Source: a virus | IMG/VR virus record: IMGVR_UViG_3300045988_171958 | Span: 224,001 to 288,000 of that record | DNA: 64,000 bases | Reading direction: 5' to 3' (one strand) | Part shown: positions 10,866-63,579 of the stretch, one piece after another | How the letters are laid out: each line of letters begins with the position of its first letter | Numbering within the stretch: position 1 is the stretch's first letter | Position numbers and translations under genes: made by a program | The notes under the pieces: generated by a model | Seen by the model: the letters and a program-made list of their open reading frames with translations, nothing else | Database searches by the model: none | Told to the model about the DNA's origin: nothing

Positions 10866-10954
10866 GTTCCATTAGCTCAGTTGGTTCCGTAAGGCTAGAG
10901 AGCATCCGACTTTTAATCGGAGGGTCACGGGTTCGAGCCCCGTATGGAACACCA
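10866..10954 (+). tRNA. trnK: tRNA-Lys (UUU) with enlarged 21-nt D-loop; CCA encoded
   Basis: Acceptor GTTCCAT/ATGGAAC; anticodon arm TCCGA-CTTTTAA-TCGGA; T arm ACGGG-TTCGAGC-CCCGT; 3' ACCA. D stem is GCTC/GAGC, but the D-loop AGTTGGTTCCGTAAGGCTAGA contains an extra CC-GTAA-GG mini-hairpin (10887-10894). Confidence 0.75.
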
Positions 10955-11994: not shown

Positions 11995-12072
11995 GCATCA
12001 GTGGTGTAGTTGGTGGTGCACATCTGGCTTCCAACCAGAAGGCTTTCGCGAGTTCGAATCTCGTCTGATGCT
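11995..12072 (+). tRNA. trnG: tRNA-Gly (UCC) with 8-nt variable loop
   Basis: Acceptor GCATCAG/CTGATGC; anticodon arm TCTGG-CTTCCAA-CCAGA; T arm GCGAG-TTCGAAT-CTCGT. The variable region AGGCTTTC is 3 nt longer than class I norms. Confidence 0.75.
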
Positions 12073-12079
12073 CTAATAT

Positions 12080-12167
12080 CTAGGTGTACTCTAATTGGTC
12101 AGAGCCTTGATTTGGGATCAAGTGGATACTGATAAAGTGGATGCAGGTTCGAGTCCTGTCACCTAGA
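12080..12167 (+). tRNA. trnP: tRNA-Pro (UGG) with anomalous 20-nt variable region
   Basis: Acceptor CTAGGTG/CACCTAG; D arm CTCT-AATTGGTC-AGAG; anticodon arm CTTGA-TTTGGGA-TCAAG; T arm GCAGG-TTCGAGT-CCTGT. TGGATACTGATAAAGTGGAT lies between the anticodon and T arms. Confidence 0.65.
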
Positions 12168-13386: not shown

Positions 13387-13649
13387 CAATCGTTGAAGTA
13401 ATGTAGTTTATGAAAGTCTAACATTAGTAATGGAAACCTAATGGCCCTCTATGTTATCCTAAAGAGAATAAAGTACGATTAGTAAATGAGTTATGGATCT
13501 GTTTAAACAGATCGCTTCAGAACTTCTAAAGAAGTCAGTAAGTTAGATGAAACCACCATAATATAATATCTGGATAACTATATGTATGGATAGGAATGAA
13601 GTTTTAGGTGCAGACACCGGTAGCGTCACCTTTTGTAATTCCTAGTATT

Positions 13650-13735
13650 GCTCCGATGTTGGAATTGGTAGACAAGATGGACTTAAAATCCATTGGTCAG
13701 TGATGACCGTACGGGTTCGATCCCCGTTCGGAGTA
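13650..13735 (+). tRNA. trnL: tRNA-Leu (UAA), class II
   Basis: Acceptor GCTCCGA/TCGGAGT; anticodon arm ATGGA-CTTAAAA-TCCAT; long variable arm GGTCA-GTGA-TGACC; T arm ACGGG-TTCGATC-CCCGT. Confidence 0.85.
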
Positions 13736-13913
13736 CAAATTGATAGCAATCCTGAATAGAGAAGGAAGAAAGACGAGTTATGAAGGTAAGTATGCTTAAA
13801 GCTGCACGTATAATGCAGTGCATACCAAGGATAAATAACTAAAACACACCATATAAACTCTACACGAAGGTCTGATGCAGGAAGTGCGCACTTGCTATCA
13901 ATTTATTTTTATT

Positions 13914-13997
13914 GCTTTCATGGCGGAATTGGTAGACGCAACTGTCTCAAAAACAGCTGATAGAAATATCATGAAGGTTCGAGTCCTTCTGGAAGTA
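13914..13997 (+). tRNA. trnL: tRNA-Leu (CAA), class II
   Basis: Acceptor GCTTTCA/TGGAAGT; anticodon loop CTCAAAA; variable arm GATA-GAAA-TATC; T arm GAAGG-TTCGAGT-CCTTC. Confidence 0.85.
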
Positions 13998-14031
13998 CTT
14001 ATTATTCAATTAAACAATTATTTTATTTTAC

Positions 14032-15033
14032 ATGAGATTACCTTTGGTGCCACTTTCAGAATGGGTATTGAATAGACAGAATGAATTTGAATTAAAATTA
14101 TTTGAATCATTCAGACAAGAATTCAATATAAGAGACAATGAAGAATTTAATATTTGTGAAAGATATGGGTCTTATGATGGACAAATGAAATTCTGTAGAG
14201 ACTTTGCAACAATGTTGTCAGAAGACATACAAGACAATCTTAATATGACTGATTTTAGATATGACTTAAATAAAGAAGAAATTAAAGATTATTATAAAGG
14301 ATTGTTTTTTGACAATATTCACTTGATATGTAATACAATGTGTCAGACAGGATATCAAGCAAGAAAATCTGAATATAATCCAAAAACCCTTACATTTAAA
14401 GATGTATATATCTATATAAACATCAAGGAATACAATAAAGAAAAGGACATTACTGTTGCACTTACTCATGAGCTTACACATGCTTATGATGATTGGAACA
14501 GACACTCAAAAGAAGGAGTTGAAACATTACTTGATATTGAGAAAAACACAGGATATGATAAATTAATTGATAAGATAAAGTCAAGTGATTTCAATGAAAA
14601 GATTGCATCTGAAATGATTTATACATTCACTTCAGTAGAAAAGAATGCTTACATGTCAGAATTGACCGCTGAAATAGAAAGTATAGGGGAAAAAATCAAA
14701 GATTATACATATATGGATGCGTTAAAAATATTTAAGAATTCAGATACATGGAAAAGATTCAATCAATTCAAAGAATATTTTATGTTGATGAATAATGAAG
14801 AAAAGAAAGTATTGTGTGATGTATACAGAGAAATAAAGAAATCAAGCAATACAGACAATAAGATATTAAAACAATTGAAATATGATATACAAGAAACATT
14901 TGATAAGATGTGTACTATCATACCAAAGATTTACTATTATTACAAAGAAAAGTATTCAAATAAAGAAATAAAGAAAGAAAAAGTAAGTGAATCAAGATTA
15001 AATAGAATAAAGAAAAGATTTAACATAATTTAA
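14032..15033 (+). CDS. Putative Zn-metallopeptidase-like protein (HExxH) inside the tRNA array (333 aa)
   Basis: ALTHELTHAYDDW contains HELTH (aa 146-150, nt 14467-14481), a zincin-type HExxH motif. The rest is K/E-rich and helical, with no further family assignment. Confidence 0.5.
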   Translation: MRLPLVPLSEWVLNRQNEFELKLFESFRQEFNIRDNEEFNICERYGSYDGQMKFCRDFATMLSEDIQDNLNMTDFRYDLNKEEIKDYYKGLFFDNIHLICNTMCQTGYQARKSEYNPKTLTFKDVYIYINIKEYNKEKDITVALTHELTHAYDDWNRHSKEGVETLLDIEKNTGYDKLIDKIKSSDFNEKIASEMIYTFTSVEKNAYMSELTAEIESIGEKIKDYTYMDALKIFKNSDTWKRFNQFKEYFMLMNNEEKKVLCDVYREIKKSSNTDNKILKQLKYDIQETFDKMCTIIPKIYYYYKEKYSNKEIKKEKVSESRLNRIKKRFNII

Positions 15034-15096
15034 CTAAATAATATTGTCCACTTTACTATTTATATATTATATTTAAATGAATAAATGAATAAAACA

Positions 15097-15210
15097 ATGA
15101 GAACTATCACAAATACATATTATCAAATAATTGATGAACAGGCCATTGATAATCAACGAATGGTTTGCTCTTGTTTTGGTATATGTGAAAGTGATGAGAT
15201 TGACTTTTAA
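15097..15210 (+). CDS. Possible small ORF (37 aa, MRTITNTYYQIIDEQAIDNQRMVCSCFGICESDEIDF)
   Basis: Below the ORF-track cutoff. Its 5' end ATGAGAACTAT is shared with the small ORF at 19033, and a hairpin follows it. Confidence 0.25.
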   Translation: MRTITNTYYQIIDEQAIDNQRMVCSCFGICESDEIDF

Positions 15211-15253
15211 ATACGTCCTCCACTGTTTAAACATTCAACAATACAATCAAGAC

Positions 15254-15281
15254 AAGAGCAATACAGAAATGTGTTGCTCTT
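15254..15281 (+). terminator. Hairpin AAGAGCAA-(12 nt)-TTGCTCTT followed by TGTTGATTT
   Basis: 8-bp stem read directly; the loop is large, so this is a weak terminator call. Confidence 0.3.
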
Positions 15282-15380
15282 TGTTGATTTAGCTTCAGCT
15301 GTACTGAAGCATGAAGTACTAAAAAAGTTGATAAAAAATGAAAATTTTTTGAAAGATCTTTGAAATACTGATAAATCAAA

Positions 15381-15397
15381 TCTATATTATATATGTA
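15381..15397 (+). promoter_or_regulatory. Promoter-like motif TCTATATTATATATGTA
   Basis: Identical over 17 nt to the 10519-10535 copy; 38 nt upstream of the ATG at 15435. Confidence 0.5.
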
Positions 15398-15434
15398 AGT
15401 TATATAAAATATCACATTTAAAATTATAATTATT

Positions 15435-15656
15435 ATGACAAGATTAGAATCAAACATTAAGATATTGAATATTATAAAGCAACTTGCCTATATGTTTCCA
15501 GATATGAGATTCATTCAGTTGCTTACAACTGTTGATGCAATTCTTGGTACTGATCAGTTCTATGAGGAATCGGAAGTTACATTGAATAGAATCAAAGAGA
15601 AAATTGAATATCAACAAAGAAGATATGGTAAGTTGACTGATATTGATATTAATTAG
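15435..15656 (+). CDS. Hypothetical protein (73 aa) in the tRNA array
   Basis: ATG ORF preceded by the promoter motif and followed 12 nt later by tRNA-Glu. Confidence 0.6.
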   Translation: MTRLESNIKILNIIKQLAYMFPDMRFIQLLTTVDAILGTDQFYEESEVTLNRIKEKIEYQQRRYGKLTDIDIN

Positions 15657-15667
15657 ATAATATAAAT

Positions 15668-15741
15668 GGCGCGTTCGACAAGTGGCCTAAGTCGCCAGTT
15701 TTTCACGCTGGTATTCACCGGTTCGAATCCGGTACGCGCTA
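15668..15741 (+). tRNA. trnE: tRNA-Glu (UUC)
   Basis: Acceptor GGCGCGT/ACGCGCT; 3-bp D stem GAC/GTC with AAGTGGCCTAA loop (as in E. coli tRNA-Glu); anticodon arm CCAGT-TTTTCAC-GCTGG; T arm ACCGG-TTCGAAT-CCGGT. Confidence 0.85.
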
Positions 15742-15752
15742 CGATAAATATT

Positions 15753-15835
15753 GGGTAGATAGATAAGTGGTTAAAATGGTTTGACTGTAAATCAAATGGC
15801 TTCGGCCTTCGGGAGTTCGAATCTCTCTCTGCCCA
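15753..15835 (+). tRNA. trnY: tRNA-Tyr (GUA), class II
   Basis: Acceptor GGGTAGA/TCTGCCC; anticodon loop CTGTAAA; variable arm GGC-TTCG-GCC; T arm GGGAG-TTCGAAT-CTCTC. Confidence 0.85.
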
Positions 15836-15984
15836 CCGGGTCAAAAGAGCAAATGATAATCATGACAAAGTGATGTGTGAACAATTTAGATATAATCAAC
15901 GCTTTACGTTGCTTGCAACTAAAGTTATTGTGAAAGCCACATAGGAGATTGATGTGCAGCTAACTGAGACTTTAATCAGTATTT

Positions 15985-16061
15985 GGAGTATTAAGCCCTG
16001 TTGGTAAGGGAACTAGACTGTCACTCTAGTAAAACTAAGGGTTCGAGTCCCTTATGCTCCG
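15985..16061 (+). tRNA. trnD: tRNA-Asp (GUC), 7-nt variable loop
   Basis: Acceptor GGAGTAT/ATGCTCC; anticodon arm CTAGA-CTGTCAC-TCTAG; T arm AAGGG-TTCGAGT-CCCTT. Confidence 0.8.
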
Positions 16062-16070
16062 CAAATAGAT

Positions 16071-16142
16071 TGGACTATGGTGTAACTGGAAACACTACAG
16101 ATTTTGGTTCTGTCATTCGGAGTTCGAACCTCCGTGGTCCAA
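16071..16142 (+). tRNA. trnQ: tRNA-Gln (UUG)
   Basis: Acceptor TGGACTA/TGGTCCA; anticodon arm ACAGA-TTTTGGT-TCTGT; T arm CGGAG-TTCGAAC-CTCCG. Confidence 0.85.
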
Positions 16143-16148
16143 CAATTT

Positions 16149-16259
16149 AGGTGGTTATATCAGTTGGTTAACTTAGTTCTTGAACAGAACATAAGTGATG
16201 TTCATTAGATAGCTTGCCTGATAAGCAAGAGGTCATAGGTTCAAGTCCTATATCACCTA
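16149..16259 (+). tRNA. trnI: tRNA-Ile (GAU) interrupted by a 37-nt hairpin insertion in the D-loop
   Basis: Acceptor AGGTGGT/ATCACCT; D stem TATC (16158-61) pairs with GATA (16208-11); anticodon arm CTTGC-CTGATAA-GCAAG; T arm ATAGG-TTCAAGT-CCTAT. After the canonical AGTTGGTTA, the D-loop carries ACTTAGTTCTTGAACAGAACATAAGTGATGTTCATTA (16171-16207). Confidence 0.7.
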
Positions 16260-16289
16260 CAAGATTCTTTGAAATTTTGGATATAGTTA

Positions 16290-16308
16290 TTCTATATTTA
16301 ATATAAAT
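16290..16308 (+). promoter_or_regulatory. Internal promoter-like motif TTCTATATTTAATATAAAT
   Basis: Core TTCTATATT lies 5 nt upstream of tRNA-Ile(UAU) and the nuclease gene. Confidence 0.4.
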
Positions 16309-16312
16309 AAAT

Positions 16313-16386
16313 ACTCCAGTAACTCAGTTGGTTAGAGTGCTCGGCTTATACCCAAGTGGTCGGGGGTTCAAGTCCCTCCTGGAGTA
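16313..16386 (+). tRNA. trnI: tRNA-Ile (UAU)
   Basis: Acceptor ACTCCAG/CTGGAGT; D arm ACTC-AGTTGGTTA-GAGT; anticodon arm CTCGG-CTTATAC-CCAAG (one C/A mismatch); T arm GGGGG-TTCAAGT-CCCTC. Confidence 0.75.
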
Positions 16387-16397
16387 CTATTAAATGT

Positions 16398-17021
16398 ATG
16401 GATTTAATAAAAAGTTATGCAAGTAAATGTTGTACAGGGCAAAAGAAAATAGCTTATTGTGTAGATTGTGGGAAAGAACTTATAATTTATAAAAGAGCTT
16501 CTTCAAAAACTTGTAGATGTGATAATTGCAGAAAAAACCGCATTAGACAAAAAAGACTACAATATAGATTAAATTTTTTAAATAATGATTATGAAATTCA
16601 TTTTGGTAGAAAATATTCAAAAGAAAGCTGGCTAGCATTACATAATGGTGGTTGTAAAGGAATACAACATCAAGGTGATTTAAGACGTAGTAAAAATGAA
16701 ATAGAATTTTGTAAATTATGTGAAGAATATTTTAATAATGTTAAACATAATGAATGTATATTTAATGGATGGGATGCAGATATAATAATAGAAGATATAA
16801 AATTCGCGGTATTATGGAATGGTCCATGGCATTATAAACAAATTACGAAATCTCATTCAGTTAAGCAAATACAAAATAGGGATAAAATAAAGATAAAAGA
16901 AATTAAAGAATCTGGTTGGACACCTTATATTATAAAAGATATGGGTAAGGCAAATAAAGATTTTGTTAAAGAAAAATTTGATGAATTCTTGAAATATTTA
17001 AAAGAAAATACTATTATTTAA
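16398..17021 (+). CDS. Zn-ribbon + PD-(D/E)xK (Vsr/DUF559-like) nuclease, probable homing endonuclease (207 aa)
   Basis: The track ORF starts at GTG 16356 inside tRNA-Ile(UAU); the first ATG after the tRNA is 16398 (MDLIKSY). N-terminal CVDCG...CRCDNC; C-terminal SKNEIEF...GWDADIIIEDIKFAVLWNGPWHY...RDKIKIKEIKESGWTPYIIKD matches the E...D...ExK Vsr/DUF559 pattern. Confidence 0.55.
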   Translation: MDLIKSYASKCCTGQKKIAYCVDCGKELIIYKRASSKTCRCDNCRKNRIRQKRLQYRLNFLNNDYEIHFGRKYSKESWLALHNGGCKGIQHQGDLRRSKNEIEFCKLCEEYFNNVKHNECIFNGWDADIIIEDIKFAVLWNGPWHYKQITKSHSVKQIQNRDKIKIKEIKESGWTPYIIKDMGKANKDFVKEKFDEFLKYLKENTII

Positions 17022-17037
17022 ATAGTTAATTATATAT

Positions 17038-17119
17038 CGTGGGTGAGTGAAACGGATATTTATAAATCACGTCGGTCTCATAAGCCGTACAATAGTGGGT
17101 TCGACTCCCACACCCATCA
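17038..17119 (+). tRNA. trnM: Second CAU-anticodon tRNA (Met, possibly initiator-like) with enlarged D-loop
   Basis: Anticodon loop CTCATAA; T arm GTGGG-TTCGACT-CCCAC; acceptor CGTGGGT/ACCCATC with unpaired 1:72 (C/C); D stem GTGA/TCAC encloses a 16-nt loop. The 5' boundary is uncertain. Confidence 0.5.
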
Positions 17120-17143
17120 CTAACAAAGAAATTCTAAACTTAA

Positions 17144-17216
17144 GGATCGATAGCTCAGTTGGTAGAGCAACTTGCTGTTAACAAGAAGGTCGTCAGTTCG
17201 AATCTGGCTCGGTCCG
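17144..17216 (+). tRNA. trnN: tRNA-Asn (GUU)
   Basis: Acceptor GGATCGA/TCGGTCC; anticodon loop CTGTTAA; T arm GTCAG-TTCGAAT-CTGGC. Confidence 0.9.
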
Positions 17217-17413
17217 CAAACGGCAACGATTATTTAGAGGCGGCTTAACTGCTACTCGAATGTGATATGGGTTGGATAATCACCAACATGGTCAAGGACA
17301 TGCACACTTCTTGATATTGACGCGACAAAACAAGATGAAGCCTAATATTACGGTGAAAGTCGAACTCTTTCTTGAATTCATCCTCTTTGTCAATTGATAG
17401 AATCCTTGAATTT

Positions 17414-17488
17414 GGGGTCAATAGCTCAGTTGACTAGAGCACTTGATTTGCATTCAAAAGGTCCAGGGTTTGAATCCCTGTGGCTCCA
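17414..17488 (+). tRNA. trnA: tRNA-Ala (UGC)
   Basis: Acceptor GGGGTCA/TGGCTCC (two G-U pairs); 3-nt instead of 2-nt linker before D stem GCTC; anticodon loop TTTGCAT; T arm CAGGG-TTTGAAT-CCCTG. Confidence 0.8.
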
Positions 17489-17630
17489 CAAGTAATAGAG
17501 AGGACCTAGCATTTAACTAGGTGGTTGTTAGAGGTGTCAGTGCAATCTACAGGTACTCCTGATAGCTCAATGTATTACGAGAATATGGTCATGATAGTTT
17601 GCACATCTGATGCCATATTTGATTTTATAT

Positions 17631-17703
17631 GCCATTATAGCTCAATTGGTAGAGCATCTGTCTTGTAAACAGAAGGTTATCGGATCATACCCGGTTAATG
17701 GCT
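17631..17703 (+). tRNA. trnT: tRNA-Thr (UGU) with atypical T-loop
   Basis: Acceptor GCCATTA/TAATGGC; anticodon arm TCTGT-CTTGTAA-ACAGA. The T arm is ATCGG-ATCATAC-CCGGT, with loop ATCATAC instead of TTCRANY. Confidence 0.75.
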
Positions 17704-17724
17704 CAAATTATTTATGGAAAAGAA

Positions 17725-17750
17725 AAAGAGCATTCTTAAGAATGCTCTTT
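17725..17750. terminator. Bidirectional intrinsic terminator (11-bp stem, TTAA loop)
   Basis: AAAGAGCATTC-TTAA-GAATGCTCTTT with an A-run upstream and a T-run downstream. It lies between the convergent tRNA array (+) and the 17759-18616 gene (-). Confidence 0.8.
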
Positions 17751-17758
17751 ATTTGTAT

Positions 17759-18616
17759 TTATTTATATGTATAAAATTGTACCCATTTATCTTTATCTTT
17801 CTTAACTTCTTCTATCAAATCCATAGCTTCATCAACCGCTTTGTTTATTGCTTTTGACAATTCTTTTGTCTCTAATGATTTATATGGGTCATCATCGTAG
17901 CTAGCTGAACCTGGTTTACCAATATAAAGCTGCCAATCTCCATTTTCTTTCTTTTTACCTATTAAGAAATCTATTTCTATTCCAGCTTTCTTGTCCCTAT
18001 GTACATATTCTATCTTAAGATATTTCTCACCTTCTTTCAAGTCTGTTACTTGCTTATCTGGGGCAGTAAATATCTTAAATTGAATCTCAGAACGTTGCTT
18101 AGCTTTAGCATCATCTTTTGCTCCATCTTGACCTAATGCCGGACTACTATTATTTTCAGTATTTCCATCATCTCCTGTATCTGATGTTTCTTCTGAAGCC
18201 GCATCATCCATACCTTGACCTTCTTCTTCCTCTCCTTCTTCTAATACATACTTTATCTTATCTTTCCACGTCTTTCCTTCAACCATAGGGATCATTGTTA
18301 TCAAATTTATGGCTTCACAATATAATTTAGGATTCTCAATTATATTTTCTACTTTACTAGAAAGACTTTTCACTTTCTCTATATAATCATTATTCTCTAC
18401 AGTAAGTAGTATTGTAGAATCTGGGTTCACATAACACTCCACTGTAATAGAAGGACTATCATCATCTGACAAATACTTTAAATATTTGCCTTCATCTAGT
18501 ATTCCTTCATATATAGTAGATCCAAACTTTTTCAATATGCAATTATGCTCCGTCATATATTTCCATATAGATGGAGCATTGTCATGTACATAACGTAATG
18601 ATACAAAATTTCTCAT
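17759..18616 (-). CDS. Hypothetical protein with central acidic linker (285 aa)
   Basis: ATG ORF MRNFVSLRYVHDN...; two globular halves joined by EEGEEEEGQGMDDAASEETSDTGDDGNTENN. Confidence 0.8.
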   Translation of the reverse strand: MRNFVSLRYVHDNAPSIWKYMTEHNCILKKFGSTIYEGILDEGKYLKYLSDDDSPSITVECYVNPDSTILLTVENNDYIEKVKSLSSKVENIIENPKLYCEAINLITMIPMVEGKTWKDKIKYVLEEGEEEEGQGMDDAASEETSDTGDDGNTENNSSPALGQDGAKDDAKAKQRSEIQFKIFTAPDKQVTDLKEGEKYLKIEYVHRDKKAGIEIDFLIGKKKENGDWQLYIGKPGSASYDDDPYKSLETKELSKAINKAVDEAMDLIEEVKKDKDKWVQFYTYK

Positions 18617-18773
18617 AGTGTATTTTATATTCTATTTAAAAATTGCTAGACAATTTAGACTTTTGATTTCAATCAAATTAAAAATAAATTTATCGGTACA
18701 ATTGACCTACATCAATTAATTATGCGGTTTTCAAAAAATTCCTTTATTTTTATAACTGTTTTTTAAATTCAAA

Positions 18774-18788
18774 TCTATATTTAATTTG
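18774..18788 (+). promoter_or_regulatory. Promoter-like motif TCTATATTTAATTTG
   Basis: Core CTATATT about 30 nt upstream of the first small ORF (18817). Confidence 0.35.
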
Positions 18789-18816
18789 AATGATAAATAT
18801 ATCTAATGTGTTAATC

Positions 18817-18915
18817 ATGAAGATATTAAAGAAAATAGGAGATATCTATTTGAGAGTAATTGCATTATCAATATGTTACCCTTCAAATGAGATGAATTAT
18901 AAAAACAAAACATAA
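18817..18915 (+). CDS. Small ORF (32 aa, MKILKKIGDIYLRVIALSICYPSNEMNYKNKT)
   Basis: First of three back-to-back sub-cutoff ORFs between a promoter motif and a strong terminator. Confidence 0.3.
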   Translation: MKILKKIGDIYLRVIALSICYPSNEMNYKNKT

Positions 18916-18919
18916 AAGG

Positions 18920-19018
18920 ATGAAAACTATGAAGAAGTTAATTAAGAAATTTTGGGATTCATATAAAGAAGCTATGTCCCTCTATGGTGAAGCAATCATC
19001 ATGTCAAAATCAGTTTAA
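18920..19018 (+). CDS. Small ORF (32 aa, MKTMKKLIKKFWDSYKEAMSLYGEAIIMSKSV)
   Basis: Starts 5 nt after the previous stop; its N-terminus is paralogous to the next ORF. Confidence 0.35.
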   Translation: MKTMKKLIKKFWDSYKEAMSLYGEAIIMSKSV

Positions 19019-19032
19019 ATTTAAATTAAAAA

Positions 19033-19143
19033 ATGAGAACTATGAAGAAAATTCTAAATGCTATCAAAAGAAACATGAAGGTATCTGCAGAACTTGGTTT
19101 GATGAACTGCACTGGATCTATACCTTTGTGGGCAACAAAGTAA
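19033..19143 (+). CDS. Small ORF (36 aa, MRTMKKILNAIKRNMKVSAELGLMNCTGSIPLWATK)
   Basis: N-terminus MRTMKK is similar to MKTMKK of the preceding ORF; followed by a terminator. Confidence 0.35.
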   Translation: MRTMKKILNAIKRNMKVSAELGLMNCTGSIPLWATK

Positions 19144-19199
19144 CATTCGACATTTGAGATCCAAAATGCCAAAGGGGAATGGCTCCTTTGGTTGATGCT

Positions 19200-19227
19200 G
19201 ACAGGACATTAAGTTCTGTCATTTTTT
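19200..19227 (+). terminator. Rho-independent terminator
   Basis: GACAGGAC-ATTAA-GTTCTGTC followed by ATTTTTTG. Confidence 0.75.
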
Positions 19228-19269
19228 GTATATTTCGAAGATTTTTATATAGATATTTTAACTTAAGGT

Positions 19270-19713
19270 ATGGACTTTTCTAAAATGACTGTATATATAA
19301 AGAAAGCAATAAAAGGTAATTTCTTCAGTAAGCTCATTCAACAGAATTCAGGATATAGCAGCAAAAGCTTCTTTCTAGTTGTTGTTACATTCATAGGTAC
19401 TCTACTGCTTGCTGTACCAATATTCTCTCTTACTATAGAAGCTTGGTACAACCATACTATAACTACTGACTTGACAGCAATGGCAGCTTATATAACAGCA
19501 GTAGCAGCTGTATTCACATCAGTAGGTCTTACAAAAGTGTGGTCAGAAAAATATGAGCATAAACTTCCTGGTCCTGATGGAAAATTTGGAACAAATGATG
19601 ATATTATCATAAATGTTACAGATGAAGAATATAATAAAATATTAGATGTAATGAATAAGCAATGCAATCACCAGGATGGCGGCTGGGATGGCCAGGGAGC
19701 GGATAATTGCTAA
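19270..19713 (+). CDS. Two-pass membrane protein (147 aa), holin-like by topology only
   Basis: Hydrophobic segments FFLVVVTFIGTLLLAVPIFSLTI and LTAMAAYITAVAAVFTSVGLTKVW. The last 14 codons (HQDGGWDGQGADNC) are encoded by the GC-rich repeat element. Confidence 0.6.
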   Translation: MDFSKMTVYIKKAIKGNFFSKLIQQNSGYSSKSFFLVVVTFIGTLLLAVPIFSLTIEAWYNHTITTDLTAMAAYITAVAAVFTSVGLTKVWSEKYEHKLPGPDGKFGTNDDIIINVTDEEYNKILDVMNKQCNHQDGGWDGQGADNC

Positions 19714-19757
19714 TAAGTATAATTTATCAGATGACCAAATTATCCGCCATCCTGGTG
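19669..19757 (+). repeat. GC-rich long-hairpin element, copy A
   Basis: CACCAGGATGGCGG (19669-82) pairs with CCGCCATCCTGGTG (19744-57), and GCGGATAATT (19699-708) with AATTATCCGC (19738-47). It shares the core CAGGGAGCGGATAATT, TATCAG and the 3' flank GTGAATRTTTT with copy B at 29065-29143. Confidence 0.7.
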
Positions 19758-19781
19758 AATATTTTATATCAAGAACTGAAG

Positions 19782-22580
19782 TTAGTTGAATTGCCTGAAT
19801 CTAGCTCTCAATGGATCTTGGTTATATTGTCCAGGCATATCATATATGCTTGGTTCATTTCCATATCCATTAGGTGATCCATAGAAATCATTCATAGATG
19901 GCAATCCTTGTTGCATACCTGTATTGTACATTGTATACATGTTAGGTATACTGGTACTTGCATTACTTTGTGTTTCTCTATATATACTAGAAGATTCTGC
20001 AGCAGCAGTAGGTAAATTTCTGTTATCCAATGATACTGTTATCTGTTTCTCTTCTTTCTTCTTTTGCAATACATTAGACATCATATCTGCTATCTTCTTA
20101 AGCATATCTAGTTTCTTCATTTCTGATTCTTCCTTTTCTATTTGTTCCCATTGTCCAGTAGCTTTCATCTCTATCTCCCACTCTTCCATGAAATCTTTAT
20201 ATTTTGTAGTATTCTTAAGAAGTGGAAGTTGTACAAAAGTCATTATCAAATCATCATGGCCGTATGCAGCAGCATAACTGCCATTTCCATTCTTATCTTC
20301 AAAATTCTCAAGCTCTGAAACAGTAAGCAAGTCTGTTATTATGACATCAAACTTCTCTAACATCATCTTAAGCAATGCACATGCAGATATCTTAGTAGCA
20401 TGACTCAATCTGATACCTGGAATTGTCTTGCTGTTTTTGAATCCATTCAAATTAGCAATATTGTCTTCTTGACTGCCTTTCTTGTATCTTATCAAATTAG
20501 CCAAGTCAAATTCACCTAATGGATTTACTTGCCATCTCCAACTTGCCTCTGGCATATATTCAGGTTCATTCAAATTCTTAAGATAGTTGTAGAATAAAGC
20601 ACCATAAGTATTCCATTCTACTGACACTATAGTCTTATTAGGATTGAATAACTGTCCATACAATACCCAGAACTCTAAGCTAGCTTGTTCCAAATCTATA
20701 GTATTGCAATGCCAATATCCTATTTGTTCAAACTTATCTTTTCCTATTACTTCTATTATGTTGAATGTTGTAAAGTCATTACCACCACCTTCTGCTAAGT
20801 CAACTAATATGATGAACCATCCAATCTTCAAATAATGCAAGTCATAATCTTTCTTGAACTTAAATTCTGTCTTATGTAAGCTGAAATACCAACTATCATC
20901 TGTAGGTGTCTCAAACAAGTAAGTCAAGTCTCTTATCTTTCCTAAGCATTCTCTTGATACAAGACATTTATCAGATGCAGAGAATTGTGTACCATATTGA
21001 TAGTAGAAAGCTTCTTCTGAACCTAAGACACCAACCATCATAGCTTTCCAAGCATTATCTCTCTTCTTCCAAATATGATTGTCAGGATCCCATTGAGGAA
21101 CTTGCCACCAATCTACTTTAAATGGAGCATACATAGACTTTCCTGTTTCTGCGGCATGCCATAGCTTATAGAACAAATTGAATCCATTTTGTGTTGACAT
21201 GATACATATATTAGAGCTTGTATCTGCAGTAACAGTAGGAAGAATGTTGTTGTAGAACAATTCAACATCATTAGGTGGACACCAAGCAAACTCATCAAGT
21301 ATCAAGAAGTTTATTGTCTTACCAAGACCGGCAGTAGGAGAGAAAGCTTCAGTAGATATTGTAGAGTTGTTGTCAAAAGCTATCTCTGACTGATTCCACT
21401 TCAAAGTACCAAGCTTCAGATGGTAAGGAAGATACAGATACATATCTTTTATCTTCTTTATCAAATCTTGTCCTGCTGGACCAGACTTAGAAAGTATCAA
21501 TGCATTTCTATCATTTCTGAACAATACTGACCAAAGACAGAATATTGCTGTAGTTGTTGAGTTGTGACTCAATATTCCATTAGTATAATATCTGTGATAA
21601 GGATGTTCTACTGAAACATCACACATAGATACTTTTGTTTTAGATACTGAAACAGACTTTACCATAGATGGTCCTCTATCTGTCATTATTTTAGATAGGT
21701 TTTCAACAAGTTTATCAGCATATATTATATCTAAGTTTTCATCAAACAACATGTGTTTGTCTGCACATTCTATAGAATACCCATTTTCAAGGATTACCTT
21801 ATATATTGCAAATGGCTTAGTATTGTAAATGTATGATATTGGTTGATATCCAACATCTGTCAATACTTTTATCCTATATTCAGAAATATCTATTTCTTTA
21901 GTGGTTTTACAGTTATCTAAAAGTTCCTTATGAAATACAAAATTGTATTCTAACCAATCAACAACTTCTACTGCTTTATAGTTTTCTTTTTTATATAGAT
22001 AATATTTCAGTTTCCAGAAAGCAGAGTTATCAAACAAGTTTTGAAATTCATAAAAAGGCAATTCAAACAAATAGTCAGATCCACTTTTTACATATTTGAA
22101 ATTCTTAAAAAGATATGTGAATTTTTGTTTACCAAACTGAATACCATAATTGTTTATGAATGCATTAGTAAACAAAAACTTCACCGTTGTATTTTGTAAA
22201 AGGCACTTTCCACTTTGTCTGCAACTTAAAAACAGGCTGAATCTGTTTTGTTGAAGATGTCTCATGTAATCTTCCTGATAGTCACGGAGTATTACTGGTT
22301 GCAAACCAGTTGGGGTCATAAGATAGCATTTGGTAGCAAAGTACAATGGATCTTCCATACAATGCATATAATCTTCTATCTCTTCTTGTGTACGCTTGAA
22401 GACCAGATCTGGCTTCAATAACTTAGTATTCTTACCAATAAAAGGGTTTGCTTTCAATGGCAAACCCTTCTTCATAGCATCTACAGCTTTCTCAAGTACT
22501 GAACAGCTCCAGATAACTGCTTCTGCCTCTTTTCCTCCTTTATCTCTCTTTACTGGATCAAATTCAAATTCTTTAGCCAT
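19782..22580 (-). CDS. terL: Terminase large subunit (T4 gp17-like) interrupted by an intein
   Basis: After removing aa 126-340 the sequence reads RDYQEDYMRHLQQNRFSLFLSCRQSGK|STTTAIFCLW (Walker A as in T4 gp17 SRQLGKT). Walker B is FLILDEFAW, followed by a C-terminal nuclease-sized domain. Confidence 0.9.
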   Translation of the reverse strand: MAKEFEFDPVKRDKGGKEAEAVIWSCSVLEKAVDAMKKGLPLKANPFIGKNTKLLKPDLVFKRTQEEIEDYMHCMEDPLYFATKCYLMTPTGLQPVILRDYQEDYMRHLQQNRFSLFLSCRQSGKCLLQNTTVKFLFTNAFINNYGIQFGKQKFTYLFKNFKYVKSGSDYLFELPFYEFQNLFDNSAFWKLKYYLYKKENYKAVEVVDWLEYNFVFHKELLDNCKTTKEIDISEYRIKVLTDVGYQPISYIYNTKPFAIYKVILENGYSIECADKHMLFDENLDIIYADKLVENLSKIMTDRGPSMVKSVSVSKTKVSMCDVSVEHPYHRYYTNGILSHNSTTTAIFCLWSVLFRNDRNALILSKSGPAGQDLIKKIKDMYLYLPYHLKLGTLKWNQSEIAFDNNSTISTEAFSPTAGLGKTINFLILDEFAWCPPNDVELFYNNILPTVTADTSSNICIMSTQNGFNLFYKLWHAAETGKSMYAPFKVDWWQVPQWDPDNHIWKKRDNAWKAMMVGVLGSEEAFYYQYGTQFSASDKCLVSRECLGKIRDLTYLFETPTDDSWYFSLHKTEFKFKKDYDLHYLKIGWFIILVDLAEGGGNDFTTFNIIEVIGKDKFEQIGYWHCNTIDLEQASLEFWVLYGQLFNPNKTIVSVEWNTYGALFYNYLKNLNEPEYMPEASWRWQVNPLGEFDLANLIRYKKGSQEDNIANLNGFKNSKTIPGIRLSHATKISACALLKMMLEKFDVIITDLLTVSELENFEDKNGNGSYAAAYGHDDLIMTFVQLPLLKNTTKYKDFMEEWEIEMKATGQWEQIEKEESEMKKLDMLKKIADMMSNVLQKKKEEKQITVSLDNRNLPTAAAESSSIYRETQSNASTSIPNMYTMYNTGMQQGLPSMNDFYGSPNGYGNEPSIYDMPGQYNQDPLRARFRQFN
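21561..22205 (-). mobile_element. Intein (215 aa) inserted in the TerL P-loop
   Basis: Begins with Cys126 (TGC at 22205-22203; CLLQNTTVKF = block A) and ends ...MCDVSVEHPYHRYYTNGILSHN (blocks F/G, His-Asn at 21566-21561), followed by +1 Ser. Block B-like SIECADKHMLF. No LAGLIDADG, HNH or GIY-YIG motif seen. Confidence 0.85.
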
Positions 22581-28505: not shown

Positions 28506-28526
28506 TTTATAAATAATAATAAGTTT

Positions 28527-28598
28527 TTTGAAATTTTTTATGTTTGTTCTAAATTTATTTGCAACAAGATTGAAATAAATCAAGATTGTTCTATATTA
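28527..28598 (+). repeat. 72-nt duplicated control region, copy A (contains promoter motif and CAAGATTG direct repeat)
   Basis: 68/72 identical to 63508-63579; the last 48 nt AAATTTATTTGCAACAAGATTGAAATAAATCAAGATTGTTCTATATTA are identical. CAAGATTG occurs at 28565-72 and 28581-88; TTCTATATT starts at 28589. Confidence 0.8.
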
Positions 28599-38380: not shown

Positions 38381-41300
38381 TTAAGATATTGTTATTGACA
38401 TATTAGCAGAACCAACATTAGACCTATATATATAATATTGTTGTGGTAATCCTGCTCCATTTATATATTTAAAGGTTTCAGTTTTTACTCCATTTTTTTC
38501 AATTGTTACTTGTATAAATGATGAAGTAATAATTTCTACTCCGTTTTTCTTTATTTGAGATATTTTTCCCCAGTTTGTAGGAAATGCCATAAAGAAACAA
38601 TGATTAGAATCAGACAAATAATCTATATTCCAATTTTTTGAATATATTGCTTTGCTATGCCTTCCTAAATGATTATTTTCGTCTATTTTTACCACAGACT
38701 CTTTTTTGTCTTTTAAATTTCCAAGATTATTATATAATGCCTCATTTAATTCTTGCATTGTACATATACCATAAAATAATAATCTATATGTGGACCAATT
38801 AACAAAACAAGATGTGTTATCTTCACCAGACGCAGGAACAATAGAACCTAAGTGTTTAGTACCATCTGAACTTGCAGCATAATCATCAGGATATCCGGAA
38901 ATGATAAGACCGCGTTTCTTTGCGAAAATAGTTTGATAACATACTTCTCCACCACCTCCGTTTAATATTGGTGATGACCAAACATCAGAATTAGTATTTA
39001 CTGCAGGTAATTTTTTATCCCATGCACCATCACATCTTTCTGGTTCCTTTTGATTATCTACAGTCCATTTCCATGTACCAGACCATTTTGGTCTGAAACC
39101 ATATTCTATCTGTAAATTAGTAATATTATTTGATTTATGTACAATATTTGCTAATTTATAACTAGTTATACCATCATTTTTAAATACTTGCCATGAACCA
39201 GTTGAAATTTGTATTCCTGCAATCTGTTTGTCACCTTCCCATATAGAGTCAAGTCTGGCCTTATCTCTTGCCGACATAAGGCCTGCTATACCAGAATTAT
39301 CATTTTCTAATGCACCTGGGATTGCTTGTGGTAATACTAAAGTATAAGTATTATTTAACCAAACATTATGTTTTTCAACATTATTATCTATATAAGTTTG
39401 TTTAAATACTTGTGTAGTATAATGTAATGTATAGCTTACTGGTGTATAAGTGAATGGATCTATAGACTTTGTAAAATAAGTACCAGTACCAAAAGTATCG
39501 AACTTATCATTCATAGTATTATACAAATAAGTATAGCTATTTCTGTACATATTATATGTTACAACAGTTGACCATGACTTATGGTTGATCTCCTTATCAT
39601 CCTTATAAATACCAGGATCATAATCATGAGCATACACATAAGTATCATTACTAAAATAACCTACACCATTTTTTCCATCTTCAGTCTCACTTTGACCAAT
39701 CCAGAATGCATTCTTTCTACTAATTTGCGGTTTTCCTTCATCATCTTTATAAGGACCTACTCCAATACCAACGGCAAAGTAACTTTTTTTATCTTCATTA
39801 TATTTACCAACAGTGGTATTTGTATATGATGAAACTTTTATTCCTTGTCCTAAACCTATACTATAGTTACCATTAATGACTGTATTTGTCTTATCTCCTA
39901 TATAAGCATGTACAGTTTCTATATAAGCACTTCTTGTATGTAATCTAGTATCATGAGTATCATCCGTATAAGCATTAATATTACCTGATACAACTTGTGT
40001 TATTTTTTCTCCAGTTATTTTTTCAGTTTTTCCTCCTGAACTTACAATCAAGCTATCATGCTTACCTACTGTAACAGATCTTTCATTAGTTATAGATTCA
40101 GTATGTACTCCACCTGTAGTTATATTTACATTAGCTTCGTTAGTTACATTAACATTATTTGCCGTTATATTAGTTCTAATACCTTTGACTATATCATCCT
40201 TATTAGATGAAGTATATGCATAAGATGTACCGTATGTAATTATCTTAACTTCAGATTGTTGTTCAACATCTTGTTTTTTATCATTTTTTACAATTGTTCC
40301 ATTAGTTATATTGACATTACCAACTGTTATATTAGTTCTAATACCTTTGACTATATCATCCTTATTAGATGAAGTATATGCATAAGATGTACCGTATGTA
40401 ATTATCTTAACTTCAGATTGTTGTTCAACATCTTGTTTTTTATCATTTTTTACAATTGTTCCATTAGTTATATTGACATTACCAACTGTGGCAATTTCTC
40501 TATTACCTTCTGTCGTATTTGTTATGTTACCATGAACATAAATATAAGAATTTTCATAAGTATAACTAGTATAATTATCCTTATTGATTTTTGTTACGGC
40601 CCCAGTAATATCTTCAGTAAGTGTTCCTTTAGCCGTTACAGACTTATTACCAATATTTTCATCATATTTTGTACTTGCATTAAGACTTATACTTGGAGAA
40701 GTCAAATCTCCTTTAGTAGTAGAAGTTACATAGAAATTAGTACCTTTATTTCCTTCTTGATCTTTACCTATGAAAGTATTTTTAGCACCCTTAAAATATG
40801 CATCTGTACTAGACTTAATACATAATTCATTAGTTACATGAATATGAGTTTTATTTAAGTCTAAATTAGTACTACCAGATGTTATGTTTAAAGAGCCTGT
40901 ATTTAAATTAGTATTTCCTGTAACTTTTATAGTTGAATTTCCTGTTACATTTTCATTATTTGTATTAGTTGTCTTATTTGATATAGTACTATTTTCATTT
41001 ATAGTATTACCTTTTATAGTTGTTGTAGCAGAAGTACCACCATGAACAGGTTGCCCAATATAAGTATGTCTTCTACCATATACATAAGATACATCAGAAC
41101 TTATATCAACATAAGTACCATCTTTTGTTGCATCACCATGAATACATATTTTGGGAGCAGATAAATATACACTATTATCTGATCTTTCAGTTATAGATCC
41201 ATTTACAAAAGTCTCTAAAGCTTTATTTACATAAACATAATTACCATCATAAGCATAACATGACTTAAATCCACTAACAGTAGAAATAAATGTTGAACCA

Positions 41301-43515: not shown

Positions 43516-46500
43516 TTATTTTCTTTCAAATGCAAATCCCCAAGTTCCTTTAGTAATATCACCTGGTGCACATACTGCAACTATATGATATCTCAATCCA
43601 CTAGGATTTATTGGGTTATCTGTAGTAAACTCATACTTTTCACGTCCAGTATTTGTTGTACTTAATGCATCACCATTATCATTATCAGATGCTGGAGTTC
43701 TAACACCTGTATCAAGAGCAGATTCGACATTCATCTGGTTTTTGTAATACATATAGAATCCATCAGGTACAGCAGAACTATTATGCTTACAAAGTTTGTA
43801 TATATTAGTTGGATATGCAAACCAGCAAGTTTTAACAGATCTGCTTATTGATGCATTAGATTGCTGTGTTTTCCCAGAAGCTGCTTGTAAATTACCATAT
43901 AAATGACCATGGTCTATATCACCATTAGATCTTCCAACAGCAGCATTCTTCTTACCTAAGAATTCATTTTGTGTCCATTTTTTCCATAATGGATTAGGTT
44001 TACGAACACCATTTTCCATTATATAAGGAACGTCATTTGTAGTACCATAGTATATTCTATATCTTGCTGTCAAAGTAAAAGATGCAGATGAATATGAAGG
44101 TAATTCAGTAAATTTATCATAAGGTGCGGCACCATCATCAGGTATATATGTTGCTTTTTCCATAAGTTGTTGAAAATACATTTGAGTTGCTGGATTAAAT
44201 ATATATGAATATGCTGTCCAAACAGTAAATTTACCTTCCCTATCAAGCTTTATTTTATCTGATATTGTACTTCTTGTCGAATATAATCCTGTTCTATAAT
44301 CAGTTTTACCAATTTCGTCAAAAGCGCCTCTATTATCCACAGCATTACAGTATGAACTATAATAAGCTAAATTGTATGAATTAGCATAATCATAAGGAGG
44401 TACCCAATTGAATTTATGATAAGGGTCTTTTGCTCCGGTATCATTCAAATATATATAATTAGGATCTGTAACATCTTCATTGTTTGCTACTAATCTCTTA
44501 GGCCAGTATTTAGCTGTATCACTCTTCATACCGGCAAGCAATTCTTTATTATGTATTACTTTATCAAATTTTTGGGCTGATATATTAGAATTATTTGGTA
44601 ATTTAAAGTAAGTTATTTCTCTTACACCTGTAGAATAACCTAACATATTTCCTAATGAAGTACCATATATAGGGTCTATGTTTTCTGGTTTATCAACACC
44701 AACATTAAATGCTCTAAATTGTATTTCAAAACTAGTTGTAGCACCTACTTCACAAATACCATCAGAATTCTGACTATTTTGGAAATATGACCATCCAACA
44801 CTATCATTAGAAATAACTGCATTTGCAATTCTATTTCCAGTATACCAAATAGCATATTGTAAGCTAGGTCTGTAATACTTAGGTTGTACAAGCAATGCTC
44901 TCATAACTGTGGTTAGATATGCTGTTGGACCTAATGAATTTACATAGCTATAAGATGTTGGGGCTACAACTTCACCACCTACTATCATACCACCATCATA
45001 ATACATCTGTCCATTCTTTCGAATATCCATGATGTTATGGCGAGAATTTTCTTTTACATAATTACCGGCATAACTATAAATAGGTTCCTTTTCACTATTT
45101 TCGCCTATTTTCTTTTTGTATAAAGTACTAGGACCCTTTGTTGTATCTCCAGTTCCACCATTTCCAATACTGAAAATAGTTTCATAACTGGATTCATAAA
45201 AACCAACAGTAGTTGTATTATTAGTACCATCTATTCCAATAGGATATCTACCTGGTAAGTATTTGTTATTTACACGGGCAAATTCATTAGGAATCTTATT
45301 AGTATCATTGTTTTCTACTAAGAAACCATTAGCAGAATAATATGATCTGTTGTATGTACCATGTCCTACTTCTGTCTTATTCTTAGATACTGTATAGAAA
45401 CCATCAGTAGAAGAGTAAGATCCTCTCGCTATAGTACCAACACCACTTGAATGTGAGAATTCTCCATAAGATGATGTATTGTTTCCTTCTGATATAGAAC
45501 CTATACCATTAGCATAAGTTGATACACCAAAAGAAGAAGAGAAATTAGATTGTGCTGTTGTCCTATTACCACTAGCAAATGATCCTTCTCCATTAGCATA
45601 AGTTGATACACCTTGTGAATGTGATGATTGTCCTATTGCCTTAGTATGTTCACCTTCGGCATGACTGTATCTATAAGCAATGGTTTCAATACCTTCTGTA
45701 TGTGATGATTGTCCTATTGCTTTAGTACGTTCACCTTCAGCATGAGATGAAGTAGATTCTGCTATTGTATTGTTACCTTCAGCATGAGAATACTGTCCAT
45801 TTGCATGGGTAACATTACCTTCTGCATGGGATCCAGATCCTGAAGCATAAGTACCATTACCTTCAGCATGACCATATTCAGCCGTTGTATAAGATCCATT
45901 ACCTTCAGCATGACCACCTATTGCATTTGAAGTAACATAAGTTTTATAACCTTCAACATGGCTATAGTTAGAATTAGCTCTGCCATATCCACCTTCAGCA
46001 TGAGATGCAATGTTGTAAGCTGATGTATAAGTACCTTCTGCATGTGTACTTGTTCCAGCTGACATTGTTCTGCTACCTTCAGCATGGGCATAAGTACCTT
46101 TTGCATAAGAGAAATTACCTTCAGCATGACTGTATTCATAAGCATTAGTTTCAATACCTTCTGCATGTCCTCCAGTACCAGTTGTTACTGTATTTACTCC
46201 TTCTACATGGGAAAATGAACCCATTGCTTTACCGCTACCTTCAGCATGTGCATAATTAGCGGTTTCTGTTATCTGAGCATTGTTTTCTGCATGGGAATAT
46301 GTACCTAATACTGTAGATTTGTTTTCTGCATGAGAATAAGATCCCAAATCGGTATTTGTAGCTGAACCTGTAACAGAAGACCCTTCGGTATGGGAATATT
46401 TACCATAAGCTTTAGATTCTTTACCTTCAGCATGAGCACCTTGACCACCAGATATAGAATCTTCACCTTCAGCAACAGAATAATTAGCATTAGCTATTGT

Positions 46501-63454: not shown

Positions 63455-63507
63455 ATATTAATATAGTAACTTTATTATTAAAAATTCACATTTTGGTTTG
63501 AATTTTA

Positions 63508-63579
63508 TTTGAAATTTTTTAGTTTGTTTCTAAATTTATTTGCAACAAGATTGAAATAAATCAAGATTGTTCTATATTA
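63508..63579 (+). repeat. 72-nt duplicated control region, copy B
   Basis: See copy A (28527-28598). CAAGATTG occurs at 63546-53 and 63562-69; the promoter motif TTCTATATTATACATGT is at 63570-86. Confidence 0.8.

Follow-up and report, generated by a model that had tools for sequence, protein, structure and literature searches.

The isoleucine tRNA gene with anticodon GAU that lies at 16149–16259 of the window—by which we mean the whole 64 000-nt stretch of phage DNA analyzed here—appears to have been struck by a very small, non-autonomous mobile element of the phage, similar in behavior to MITEs and REP sequences, which has likely left the gene hypomorphic or without function. We put the probability of this reading at roughly 0.7. 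The element, 35 nt in length, would have inserted at a TA dinucleotide in the D-loop and duplicated it; it would do the same at TA sites elsewhere, including sites beside copies of itself, giving tandem arrays with a period of 39 nt. The form that moves may be a hairpin of single-stranded DNA, recognized by an enzyme supplied in trans. As for the interrupted gene, it is most likely an allele of recent origin, hypomorphic or without function, of an accessory tRNA that these phages can do without. We infer both the transposition at the DNA level and the loss of tRNA function from the copies and alleles described below.

The gene belongs to a cluster of 25 tRNA genes at 10.6–17.7 kb in the window. 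A first-pass annotation had described it as a tRNA-Ile(GAU) in which all four arms are canonical and the D-loop contains an additional 37 nt, at 16171–16207, folded into a hairpin (ACTTA-GTTCT/AGAAC-A-TAAGT, loop TGAAC), and had proposed searches with and without the insert, and a look among relatives for the insertion and for compensatory changes in its stem. The description holds throughout: the sequence reads as stated, ten further contigs carry the insertion while others have the gene uninterrupted, and the hairpin is supported by predicted folds and by covariation among copies. What was not visible at that stage is the nature of the insert, a mobile repeat between two copies of its TA target. 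The parts are these:

16149–16259, plus strand: tRNA-Ile(GAU) gene with an insertion in the D-loop, from Rfam alignment, with the arms read by position
16149–16170, plus strand: 5′ part of the gene, with the 5′ strands of the acceptor and D stems and the D-loop AGTTGGTTA containing G18 and G19; placed by Rfam alignment, and the same in bases as the intact alleles of relatives
16169–16170, no strand: TA target dinucleotide, left copy, from empty versus filled alleles
16171–16205, plus strand: mobile hairpin element of 35 nt, from its repeat family, covariation and folds
16206–16207, no strand: TA target dinucleotide, right copy, from empty versus filled alleles
16208–16259, plus strand: 3′ part of the gene, from the 3′ strand of the D stem through the anticodon arm (GAU), variable loop, T arm and acceptor to the discriminator A; a 100% match to the intact allele of L004 (related loci are given here by L numbers) and to others

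The acceptor stem pairs AGGTGGT (16149–16155) with ATCACCT (16252–16258), next to the discriminator, A16259, and the D stem pairs TATC (16158–16161) with GATA (16208–16211). The anticodon arm is CTTGC-CTGATAA-GCAAG (16213–16229) and the T arm is ATAGG-TTCAAGT-CCTAT (16235–16251). The D-loop is 46 nt long; natural D-loops are ~4–11 nt (PMC7609411). When a 122-nt stretch is searched alone, the Rfam tRNA model RF00005 aligns end to end over 16149–16259, scoring 47.8 bits where 29 is the gathering score, and places a 39-nt insertion in the D-loop. With 16171–16207 deleted, a canonical tRNA-Ile(GAU) remains, 74 nt including the discriminator (ARAGORN gives 75, counting one further base), and it agrees base for base with the uninterrupted gene of five IMG/VR contigs of 167–283 kb. 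The edges of the insertion are ambiguous by 0–3 nt, since TTA both stands before the insert and ends it; the other copies of the element fix the structure as TA, 35 nt and TA.

Larger Rfam searches, and ARAGORN, find a 67–68-nt tRNA at 16193–16259/60 instead, with 35 bits and without a proper D arm. This shorter call arises because AAGTGAT in the insert closely mimics the acceptor stem's 5′ strand, and automated tRNA finders will mis-call genes of this kind as tRNAs that lack a D arm. The insert also contains CTTGAAC, complementary to the T-loop, and for these two likenesses together we considered whether it might be a fragment of this very tRNA. We rejected the idea: the same bases occur in every copy of the element elsewhere, and the resemblance is therefore coincidental.

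The copy in the window is of the 35-nt subtype and reads ACTTAGTTCTTGAACAGAACATAAGTGATGTTCAT. The consensus of the family is ACTTTAGTTCTTGAACAGAACTGAAAGTGATGTTCAT, with TA on either side, and its commonest form is 37 nt long. In the window copy the stem strands are ACTTA+GTTCT (16171–16180) and AGAAC-A-TAAGT (16186–16196), with the loop TGAAC (16181–16185) between them, and there follows a tail, GATGTTCAT (16197–16205), in which GTTCA (16200–16204) is complementary to the loop. The palindrome thus takes up positions 1–26 of the element in the 35-nt form, or 1–28 in the 37-nt form, and the right end is a 9-nt tail that is not palindromic. The fold is an imperfect hairpin of 10 bp with a loop of 5 nt, worth −8 to −9 kcal/mol as RNA and −5 to −6 kcal/mol as DNA.

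In the 26 distinct copies taken together, pairing is kept in 95% of cells. None of 500 shuffles reached the observed covariation score, and pairing drops to 33–54% in slid controls. Both sides have changed together at three pairs: one is in the outer stem, U-A to A-U, and the other two are in the pairing between loop (TGAAC) and tail (GTTCA), G-C to A-U and C-G to U-A. In L108, the 35-nt subtype has one more A-U variant. With the tail only 3 nt from a 10-bp stem that closes a 5-nt loop, full pairing of loop with tail is impossible, and hence the two are probably alternative folds. Compensated pairing, taken with the absence of any preferred orientation (below), suggests that the fold matters at the level of DNA. 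The strand asymmetry of wobble pairs, which might have told RNA function from DNA function, was uninformative, G-T falling on the element strand at 3 sites and on the other strand at 2.

Approximately 90 copies of the element occur in related T4-like gut phages of ~250–300 kb, at a density of ~6–10 per genome. When loci with the intact tRNA were compared with the window by BLAST, the insert itself matched two other places in L003. Pattern scans placed the element at 14 IMG/VR loci, at 10 loci of contigs that had been assigned to two MAGs labeled ‘uncultured Romboutsia’, and at 31 human-gut metagenome loci; the bacterial chromosomes in the scan had none. By nhmmer there are 77 copies, 26 of them distinct in sequence, in 0.54 Mb of related sequence. 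The window has only the copy in the tRNA gene, plus weak fragments such as this one:

19765–19784, minus strand: CTAACTTCAGTTCTTGATAT, a weak match that looks like a truncated remnant of the element's left half, where the terminase gene ends (nhmmer E = 0.49)

At the terminase 3′ end of L004 there is a longer, degenerate copy, weakly attested at E = 0.062.

None of the 77 copies lies in the interior of a long ORF: all are intergenic or touch the end of an ORF. With respect to flanking genes, 7 copies are antisense, 5 sense, 4 between convergent genes and 3 between divergent genes, which is to say without bias. The bases that precede the target TA are T-rich. We considered a preference for hairpin loops as targets, and rejected it: the flanking stems at 26 reconstructed targets are no longer than those at background intergenic TAs (Mann–Whitney p = 0.21). 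Three 35-nt copies are found at stem-loop junctions. Nor are tRNA genes singled out: chance alone would give ~1 tRNA hit per genome-wide set of ~30 insertion loci. The two tRNA insertions found share their position in the D-loop, a coincidence with a chance probability of ~0.12. Fifteen to 35 nt on the 3′ side of many copies (for example in L008, L009, L010, L012, L015, L017, L037 and L049), the motif TTTAC(A/G)...(A/T)ATATAG(A/T)A recurs; the phages may use it as a promoter, or it may belong to a composite repeat of greater length, like the PeSL motifs discussed below. The window also has an intergenic direct repeat of 75 nt, at 28524–28598 and 63505–63579, with 93% identity between the two. 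It is homologous to sequence that flanks the element in L016, L019 and L059; it represents a paralogous empty site, and is probably a promoter region.

The case for mobility comes from comparing filled sites with empty ones. The tRNA-Ile gene reads GGT-TA-GATA when empty and GGT-TA-(35 nt)-TA-GATA when filled. A second site, intergenic, is empty in the window and filled by a sister copy of 35 nt in L003 and L038:

15292–15310, no strand: empty site in an intergenic hairpin, GCTTCAGCTG-TA-CTGAAGC, with its TA at 15302–15303, from alignment of the window with L003

The third is a tRNA-His(GUG) gene in a more distant lineage. Here, L107 has CAATGG-TA-GGAC intact, and L105 and L106 have the site filled by the same, identical 35-nt element (L105:5532–5569, which is L099:28–65, and L106:5298–5335); the gene is intact in L108–L119, too. 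At these three unrelated sites the duplication of TA, as made by MITEs of the TA type, is clean, and three more filled and empty pairs are compatible with it, their flanks having diverged. Copy number at a single locus varies from 0 (L018) to 1 (L010 and others), 2 (L033 and L047) and at least 4–5 (L051), and the period of the tandem arrays is exactly 39 nt, the length of the element plus one TA. Arrays of this kind might have grown by slippage rather than by insertion, and to that extent they count against a mobile element. Deletion of 75 copies in silico, from the first 62 loci, revealed no further interrupted tRNAs; the tRNA-His gene came to light by another route.

The interrupted allele is common. 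Ten contigs besides the window have it, without a difference over its 111 nt, and these derive from different samples, studies and assemblers. A gene for a 207-aa protein, 190 nt downstream of the tRNA, has the same sequence on at least 23 contigs, and each of the 10 of these that were examined has the 111-nt allele; their outer flanks are mosaic, at 85–99% identity. The interrupted tRNA and the protein gene form a single linked block, at least 99.6% identical. Among 43 contigs—a non-random sample that includes contigs with other variants of the 207-aa protein—17 have a tRNA-Ile of full length, 74 nt, two of these with mismatches in the anticodon stem; 14 have an internal deletion of 37 nt that leaves only the acceptor and T arms, two of these with a mutation in the T-loop; 11 have the gene interrupted by the element; and one lacks it at this site and has a copy elsewhere. 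The deletion allele (L060, L073–L078, L080, L092, L093, L123, L125, L127 and L128) is without exactly nucleotides 10–46, and its remnant is again 37 nt, like a minihelix; that the three lengths are 37, 74 and 111 nt looks coincidental.

Three readings of the interrupted gene were on offer in the first-pass annotation: a new kind of intervening sequence, a tRNA with an extra arm, and a dead gene. The last has the best support. Relatives have the gene uninterrupted, the same locus has other loss-of-function alleles, and an interrupted tRNA-His has acquired a mismatch in its anticodon stem. The deletion and stem-mismatch alleles of tRNA-Ile mean that the gene is dispensable, and decaying. The exons of all 11 interrupted copies are 100% intact, with no sign of decay, as expected if the insertion is recent. 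Those of the interrupted tRNA-His in L106 are essentially intact, too; in L105 the anticodon stem has three substitutions, one of which creates a G-G mismatch. Of the other two readings, the extra arm is less probable and the intervening sequence is not supported.

If the insertion is tolerated, the product would be a 111-nt cloverleaf with an additional hairpin at positions 20/21, either a working tRNA or a decoy that shields against host nucleases. We consider this unlikely, although there is something to be said for it. Both the Ile and the His gene were hit at the same TA of the D-loop, immediately before the D stem's 3′ strand, and both retain G18, G19 and the equivalent of A21; exons are intact throughout the 11 interrupted Ile copies, and nearly so in the His copy of L106; and the interrupted allele is widespread across samples. 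Another tRNA of these phages, moreover, tRNA-Lys(UUU), has a conserved mini-hairpin in a D-loop of 21 nt. Against it, the D-loop would have to be far longer than any in the natural range (PMC7609411), the coincidence of position is weak (p ~0.12), hits in tRNA genes are not above chance, and the tRNA-His of L105 has its G-G mismatch. The deletion and mismatch alleles at the Ile locus show, in addition, that persistence is no proof of function. Thermodynamics does not decide the matter. The minimum-free-energy fold of the interrupted RNA, at −27.9 kcal/mol, pairs CUUGAAC of the insert with GUUCAAG of the T-loop (ensemble probability ~0.55), which speaks against an independent arm, and a cloverleaf with a separate insert hairpin has −25.7 kcal/mol, 2.2 higher. 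The intact tRNA has the same 2.2 kcal/mol gap, however, and so the cloverleaf with hairpin is as near to the minimum as the cloverleaf of the intact tRNA is.

The tRNA-Lys(UUU) gene is of interest by itself. At 10866–10951 of the window, and likewise in L004, L060, L061 and L062, its 21-nt D-loop includes a mini-hairpin of the form CC-GNRA-GG. It scores 57 bits as a full tRNA; ARAGORN and the large Rfam searches give a truncated call, from 10884. The window has GUAA as its tetraloop, three relatives have GCAA and one has GGAA; the loop has thus kept its GNRA form through substitutions, and expansion of the D-loop is evidently tolerated in this group of phages. The mini-hairpin may be a functional extra element in the tRNA; tRNA-Lys is often the target of host anticodon nucleases. 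In L062 there is a second tRNA-Lys, which is canonical. The variable regions of two other tRNAs in the cluster also deserve mention. That of tRNA-Pro(UGG), at 12080–12167, is ~21 nt, making 88–89 nt in all, which is unusual for tRNA-Pro; the long form recurs in L060 and L108, L001 and L004 are without the gene, and L105–L107 and L109–L114 have a normal tRNA-Pro of 74–75 nt. In tRNA-Gly(UCC), at 11995–12072, the variable loop is ~9 nt.

A further possibility, and one we favor slightly less than the extra arm, is that the repeat is a regulatory hairpin of the phage—a terminator, or a site for RNA processing or protein binding—that spreads by recombination and came to be in the tRNA by accident. 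The phages are T4-like, to judge from their Gp23 and Gp20 matches, and T4-type phages have stem-loops of a comparable sort in their PeSL motifs (PMC2839356, PMC4122927). The copies are intergenic, several have TATAG(A/T)A 15–35 nt further on, and some share longer flanks. Recombination of ~100-bp cassettes, on the other hand, would not yield solo insertions of 35 nt with exact duplication of TA at three unrelated sites; orientation with respect to genes is unbiased, and no U-tract follows the hairpin. A regulatory role is compatible with a mobile element, as a secondary, domesticated one.

As for the intervening sequence, it would be a small intron of a new class, 37 nt cut from the pre-tRNA by an endonuclease and sealed by a ligase, possibly by RNA repair enzymes like those of T4. 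The insertion is precise and structured, its removal gives back a perfect tRNA, and T4-type phages encode the tRNA repair enzymes PNK and Rnl1. We nonetheless hold it to be very improbable. The hairpin abuts the 5′ junction and ends 11 nt short of the 3′ junction, because of which no bulge-helix-bulge can be drawn; nor are the ends of the insert complementary. Its 37 nt fall far short of a group I intron, the core of which needs at least ~200 nt and which is typically found in the anticodon loop, and the insert matched no intron family of Rfam at E ≤ 1 in the larger search, or at E ≤ 10 with the stretch searched alone. No RNA ligase or splicing endonuclease is found among the ORFs of the window or the Pfam families listed for related loci. 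An element that is spliced would be tolerated inside ORFs, and copies are absent from there; this one is an intergenic DNA repeat, instead, present in both orientations and in tandem arrays. Finally, the notion that the interrupted allele is an artefact of assembly or sequencing has only the general fallibility of metagenome assemblies to recommend it, and is refuted by the same 111-nt allele in 10 independently assembled contigs with mosaic flanks.

We looked for an enzyme that might mobilize the element. Among the genes of the window are those for a large terminase and a portal protein, and related loci encode a T4-type portal (Gp20), Gp23 capsid protein, NrdD, subunits of gyrase and topoisomerase, Hsp70, DnaJ and an NAD-dependent ligase. 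The genomes, ~250–300 kb in size with a G+C content of ~30%, derive from gut samples of humans and pigs. One of the related loci, L064 (GCA_902729945.1, CACVDK010000001.1; 293 853 bp), is 100% identical to positions 13398–20021 of the window; megablast against GenBank phages found no close relative. Searches of the ORFs of the window against Pfam, PHROGs and NCBIfam yielded no transposase. Among the Pfam hits listed for 248 protein clusters from related loci there is no DDE or Y1_Tnp domain, and the nuclease domains of these clusters are of TnsA-like, HNH and LAGLIDADG kinds only.

The 207-aa protein that adjoins the interrupted tRNA (16398–17021, plus strand) begins with a C4 zinc ribbon. The database contains 1410 of its homologues, and relatives have paralogues of it inside their tRNA cluster. 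Inspected by eye, its segment RRSKNEIEF...WDADIIIEDIKF...LWNGPWHY resembles PD-(D/E)XK nucleases of the Vsr/DUF559 sort, which suggests a putative free-standing homing endonuclease; Pfam gave no hits, PDB sequence and profile searches were not significant, and the AlphaFold model, with a pLDDT of 47, is unusable. The large terminase (19782–22580, minus strand) has 932 aa in the window and in most of its close relatives, and 738–753 aa in L067 and L105–L107, which points to an insertion in the long form, such as an intein or an extra domain. Two giant ORFs on the minus strand, 38381–43429 and 43516–47391, encode 1682 and 1291 aa, with no Pfam hits; they are rich in repeats with a period of 42 nt (14 aa) and in 36-nt repeats, and are probably fiber or surface proteins. 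Ten of the related loci, L019–L028, were binned in two MAGs of ‘uncultured Romboutsia sp.’ (CALESE01 and CALFLM01), and are 91–97% identical to IMG/VR phage contigs. This flags the MAGs as contaminated by phage contigs, and the binning, together with the ~30% G+C, hints weakly at a host among the Peptostreptococcaceae.

An element of 35 nt with a 2-nt duplication would mark the lower size limit of transposable DNA, and with filled and empty sites, arrays and covariation all to hand, the minimal substrate for transposition becomes directly testable. For the phages, the alleles at these loci illustrate how accessory tRNA repertoires are eroded by insertion, deletion and point mutation. A bolder combination can be imagined, in which this is the smallest transposable element so far, guided in its movement by structure in a way without known counterpart, and the interrupted Ile and His genes, hit in the variable pocket of the D-loop, make extra-arm tRNAs or decoys against host defenses aimed at tRNAs that, together with the tRNA-Lys hairpin, amount to a remodeling of tRNA elbows. 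We regard it as a long shot. If the interrupted tRNAs did prove functional, they would represent a new tRNA architecture. In the searchable literature on phage MITEs, D-loop insertions and phage tRNA oddities, we came across no precedent.

How does the element compare with known systems? Among sequences that interrupt genes, the D-loop introns of archaea that have a bulge-helix-bulge are short, like the insert, and their removal, too, restores a canonical tRNA. The insert lacks the bulge-helix-bulge, however; it resides in a phage of bacterial type, and it is found elsewhere as a DNA repeat in both orientations. The palindromic elements of Rickettsia are selfish palindromic repeats that may lie within functional genes, 100–150 bp in length and typically in frame in protein genes, whereas the copies described here avoid the interiors of ORFs.

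MITEs that duplicate TA—those of the IS630/Tc1-mariner kind and the Correia elements of Neisseria—are another point of comparison. Like our element, they are short, non-coding, mostly intergenic and able to form hairpins, they duplicate a TA target, and they are polymorphic in position between close relatives. MITEs are ~100 bp or more, however, against 35–37 bp here, and they have inverted repeats at their termini, whereas the inverted repeat here is not terminal but is followed by the 9-nt tail. A parental IS with a DDE transposase stands behind MITEs; none was found for this element in the window or among the 248 clusters, and the element inhabits phage genomes. And where MITE ends are each recognized by protein, the compensatory changes here point to base-pairing.

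REP and REPIN sequences, which are mobilized by RAYTs (Y1 HUH enzymes), and the IS200/IS605 family resemble the element in other ways. They, too, comprise imperfect extragenic palindromes of ~35–40 nt in clusters and arrays, with a structure conserved by covariation and single-stranded hairpin DNA as the plausible active form, and as a repeated, extragenic, imperfect palindrome of 20–40 nt the element would pass for a REP. Yet REPs have a conserved GT[AG]G on the 5′ side of the hairpin, and the element has ACTT after the TA and no GTAG; REP and IS200/IS605 elements insert without target duplication, and the element has TA on both sides. No RAYT or TnpA was found in the sampled sequence.

The PeSL motifs of T4-type phages, intergenic stem-loops with promoter motifs, have been tied to the plasticity of these genomes; each is a composite of ~100 bp, an early promoter (−35/−10) plus stem-loop, and they shuffle ORFs by homologous recombination, by way of mini-circles (PMC2839356, PMC4122927). 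As here, the phages are T4-like, the stem-loops are intergenic and repeated, and they are present in one genome and absent from a related one. PeSL motifs show no duplication of the target, and solo insertion of 35 nt into genes is not described for them; the element displays both: the copies in tRNA-Ile, in L003 (L003a) and in tRNA-His are solo 35-nt insertions with duplication of TA. PeSL motifs are the nearest analogue among phages, different in size and in manner of movement. Dispersed, extragenic, structured, polymorphic and target-duplicating, the element behaves as MITEs and REPs do, and yet it lacks defining features of each.
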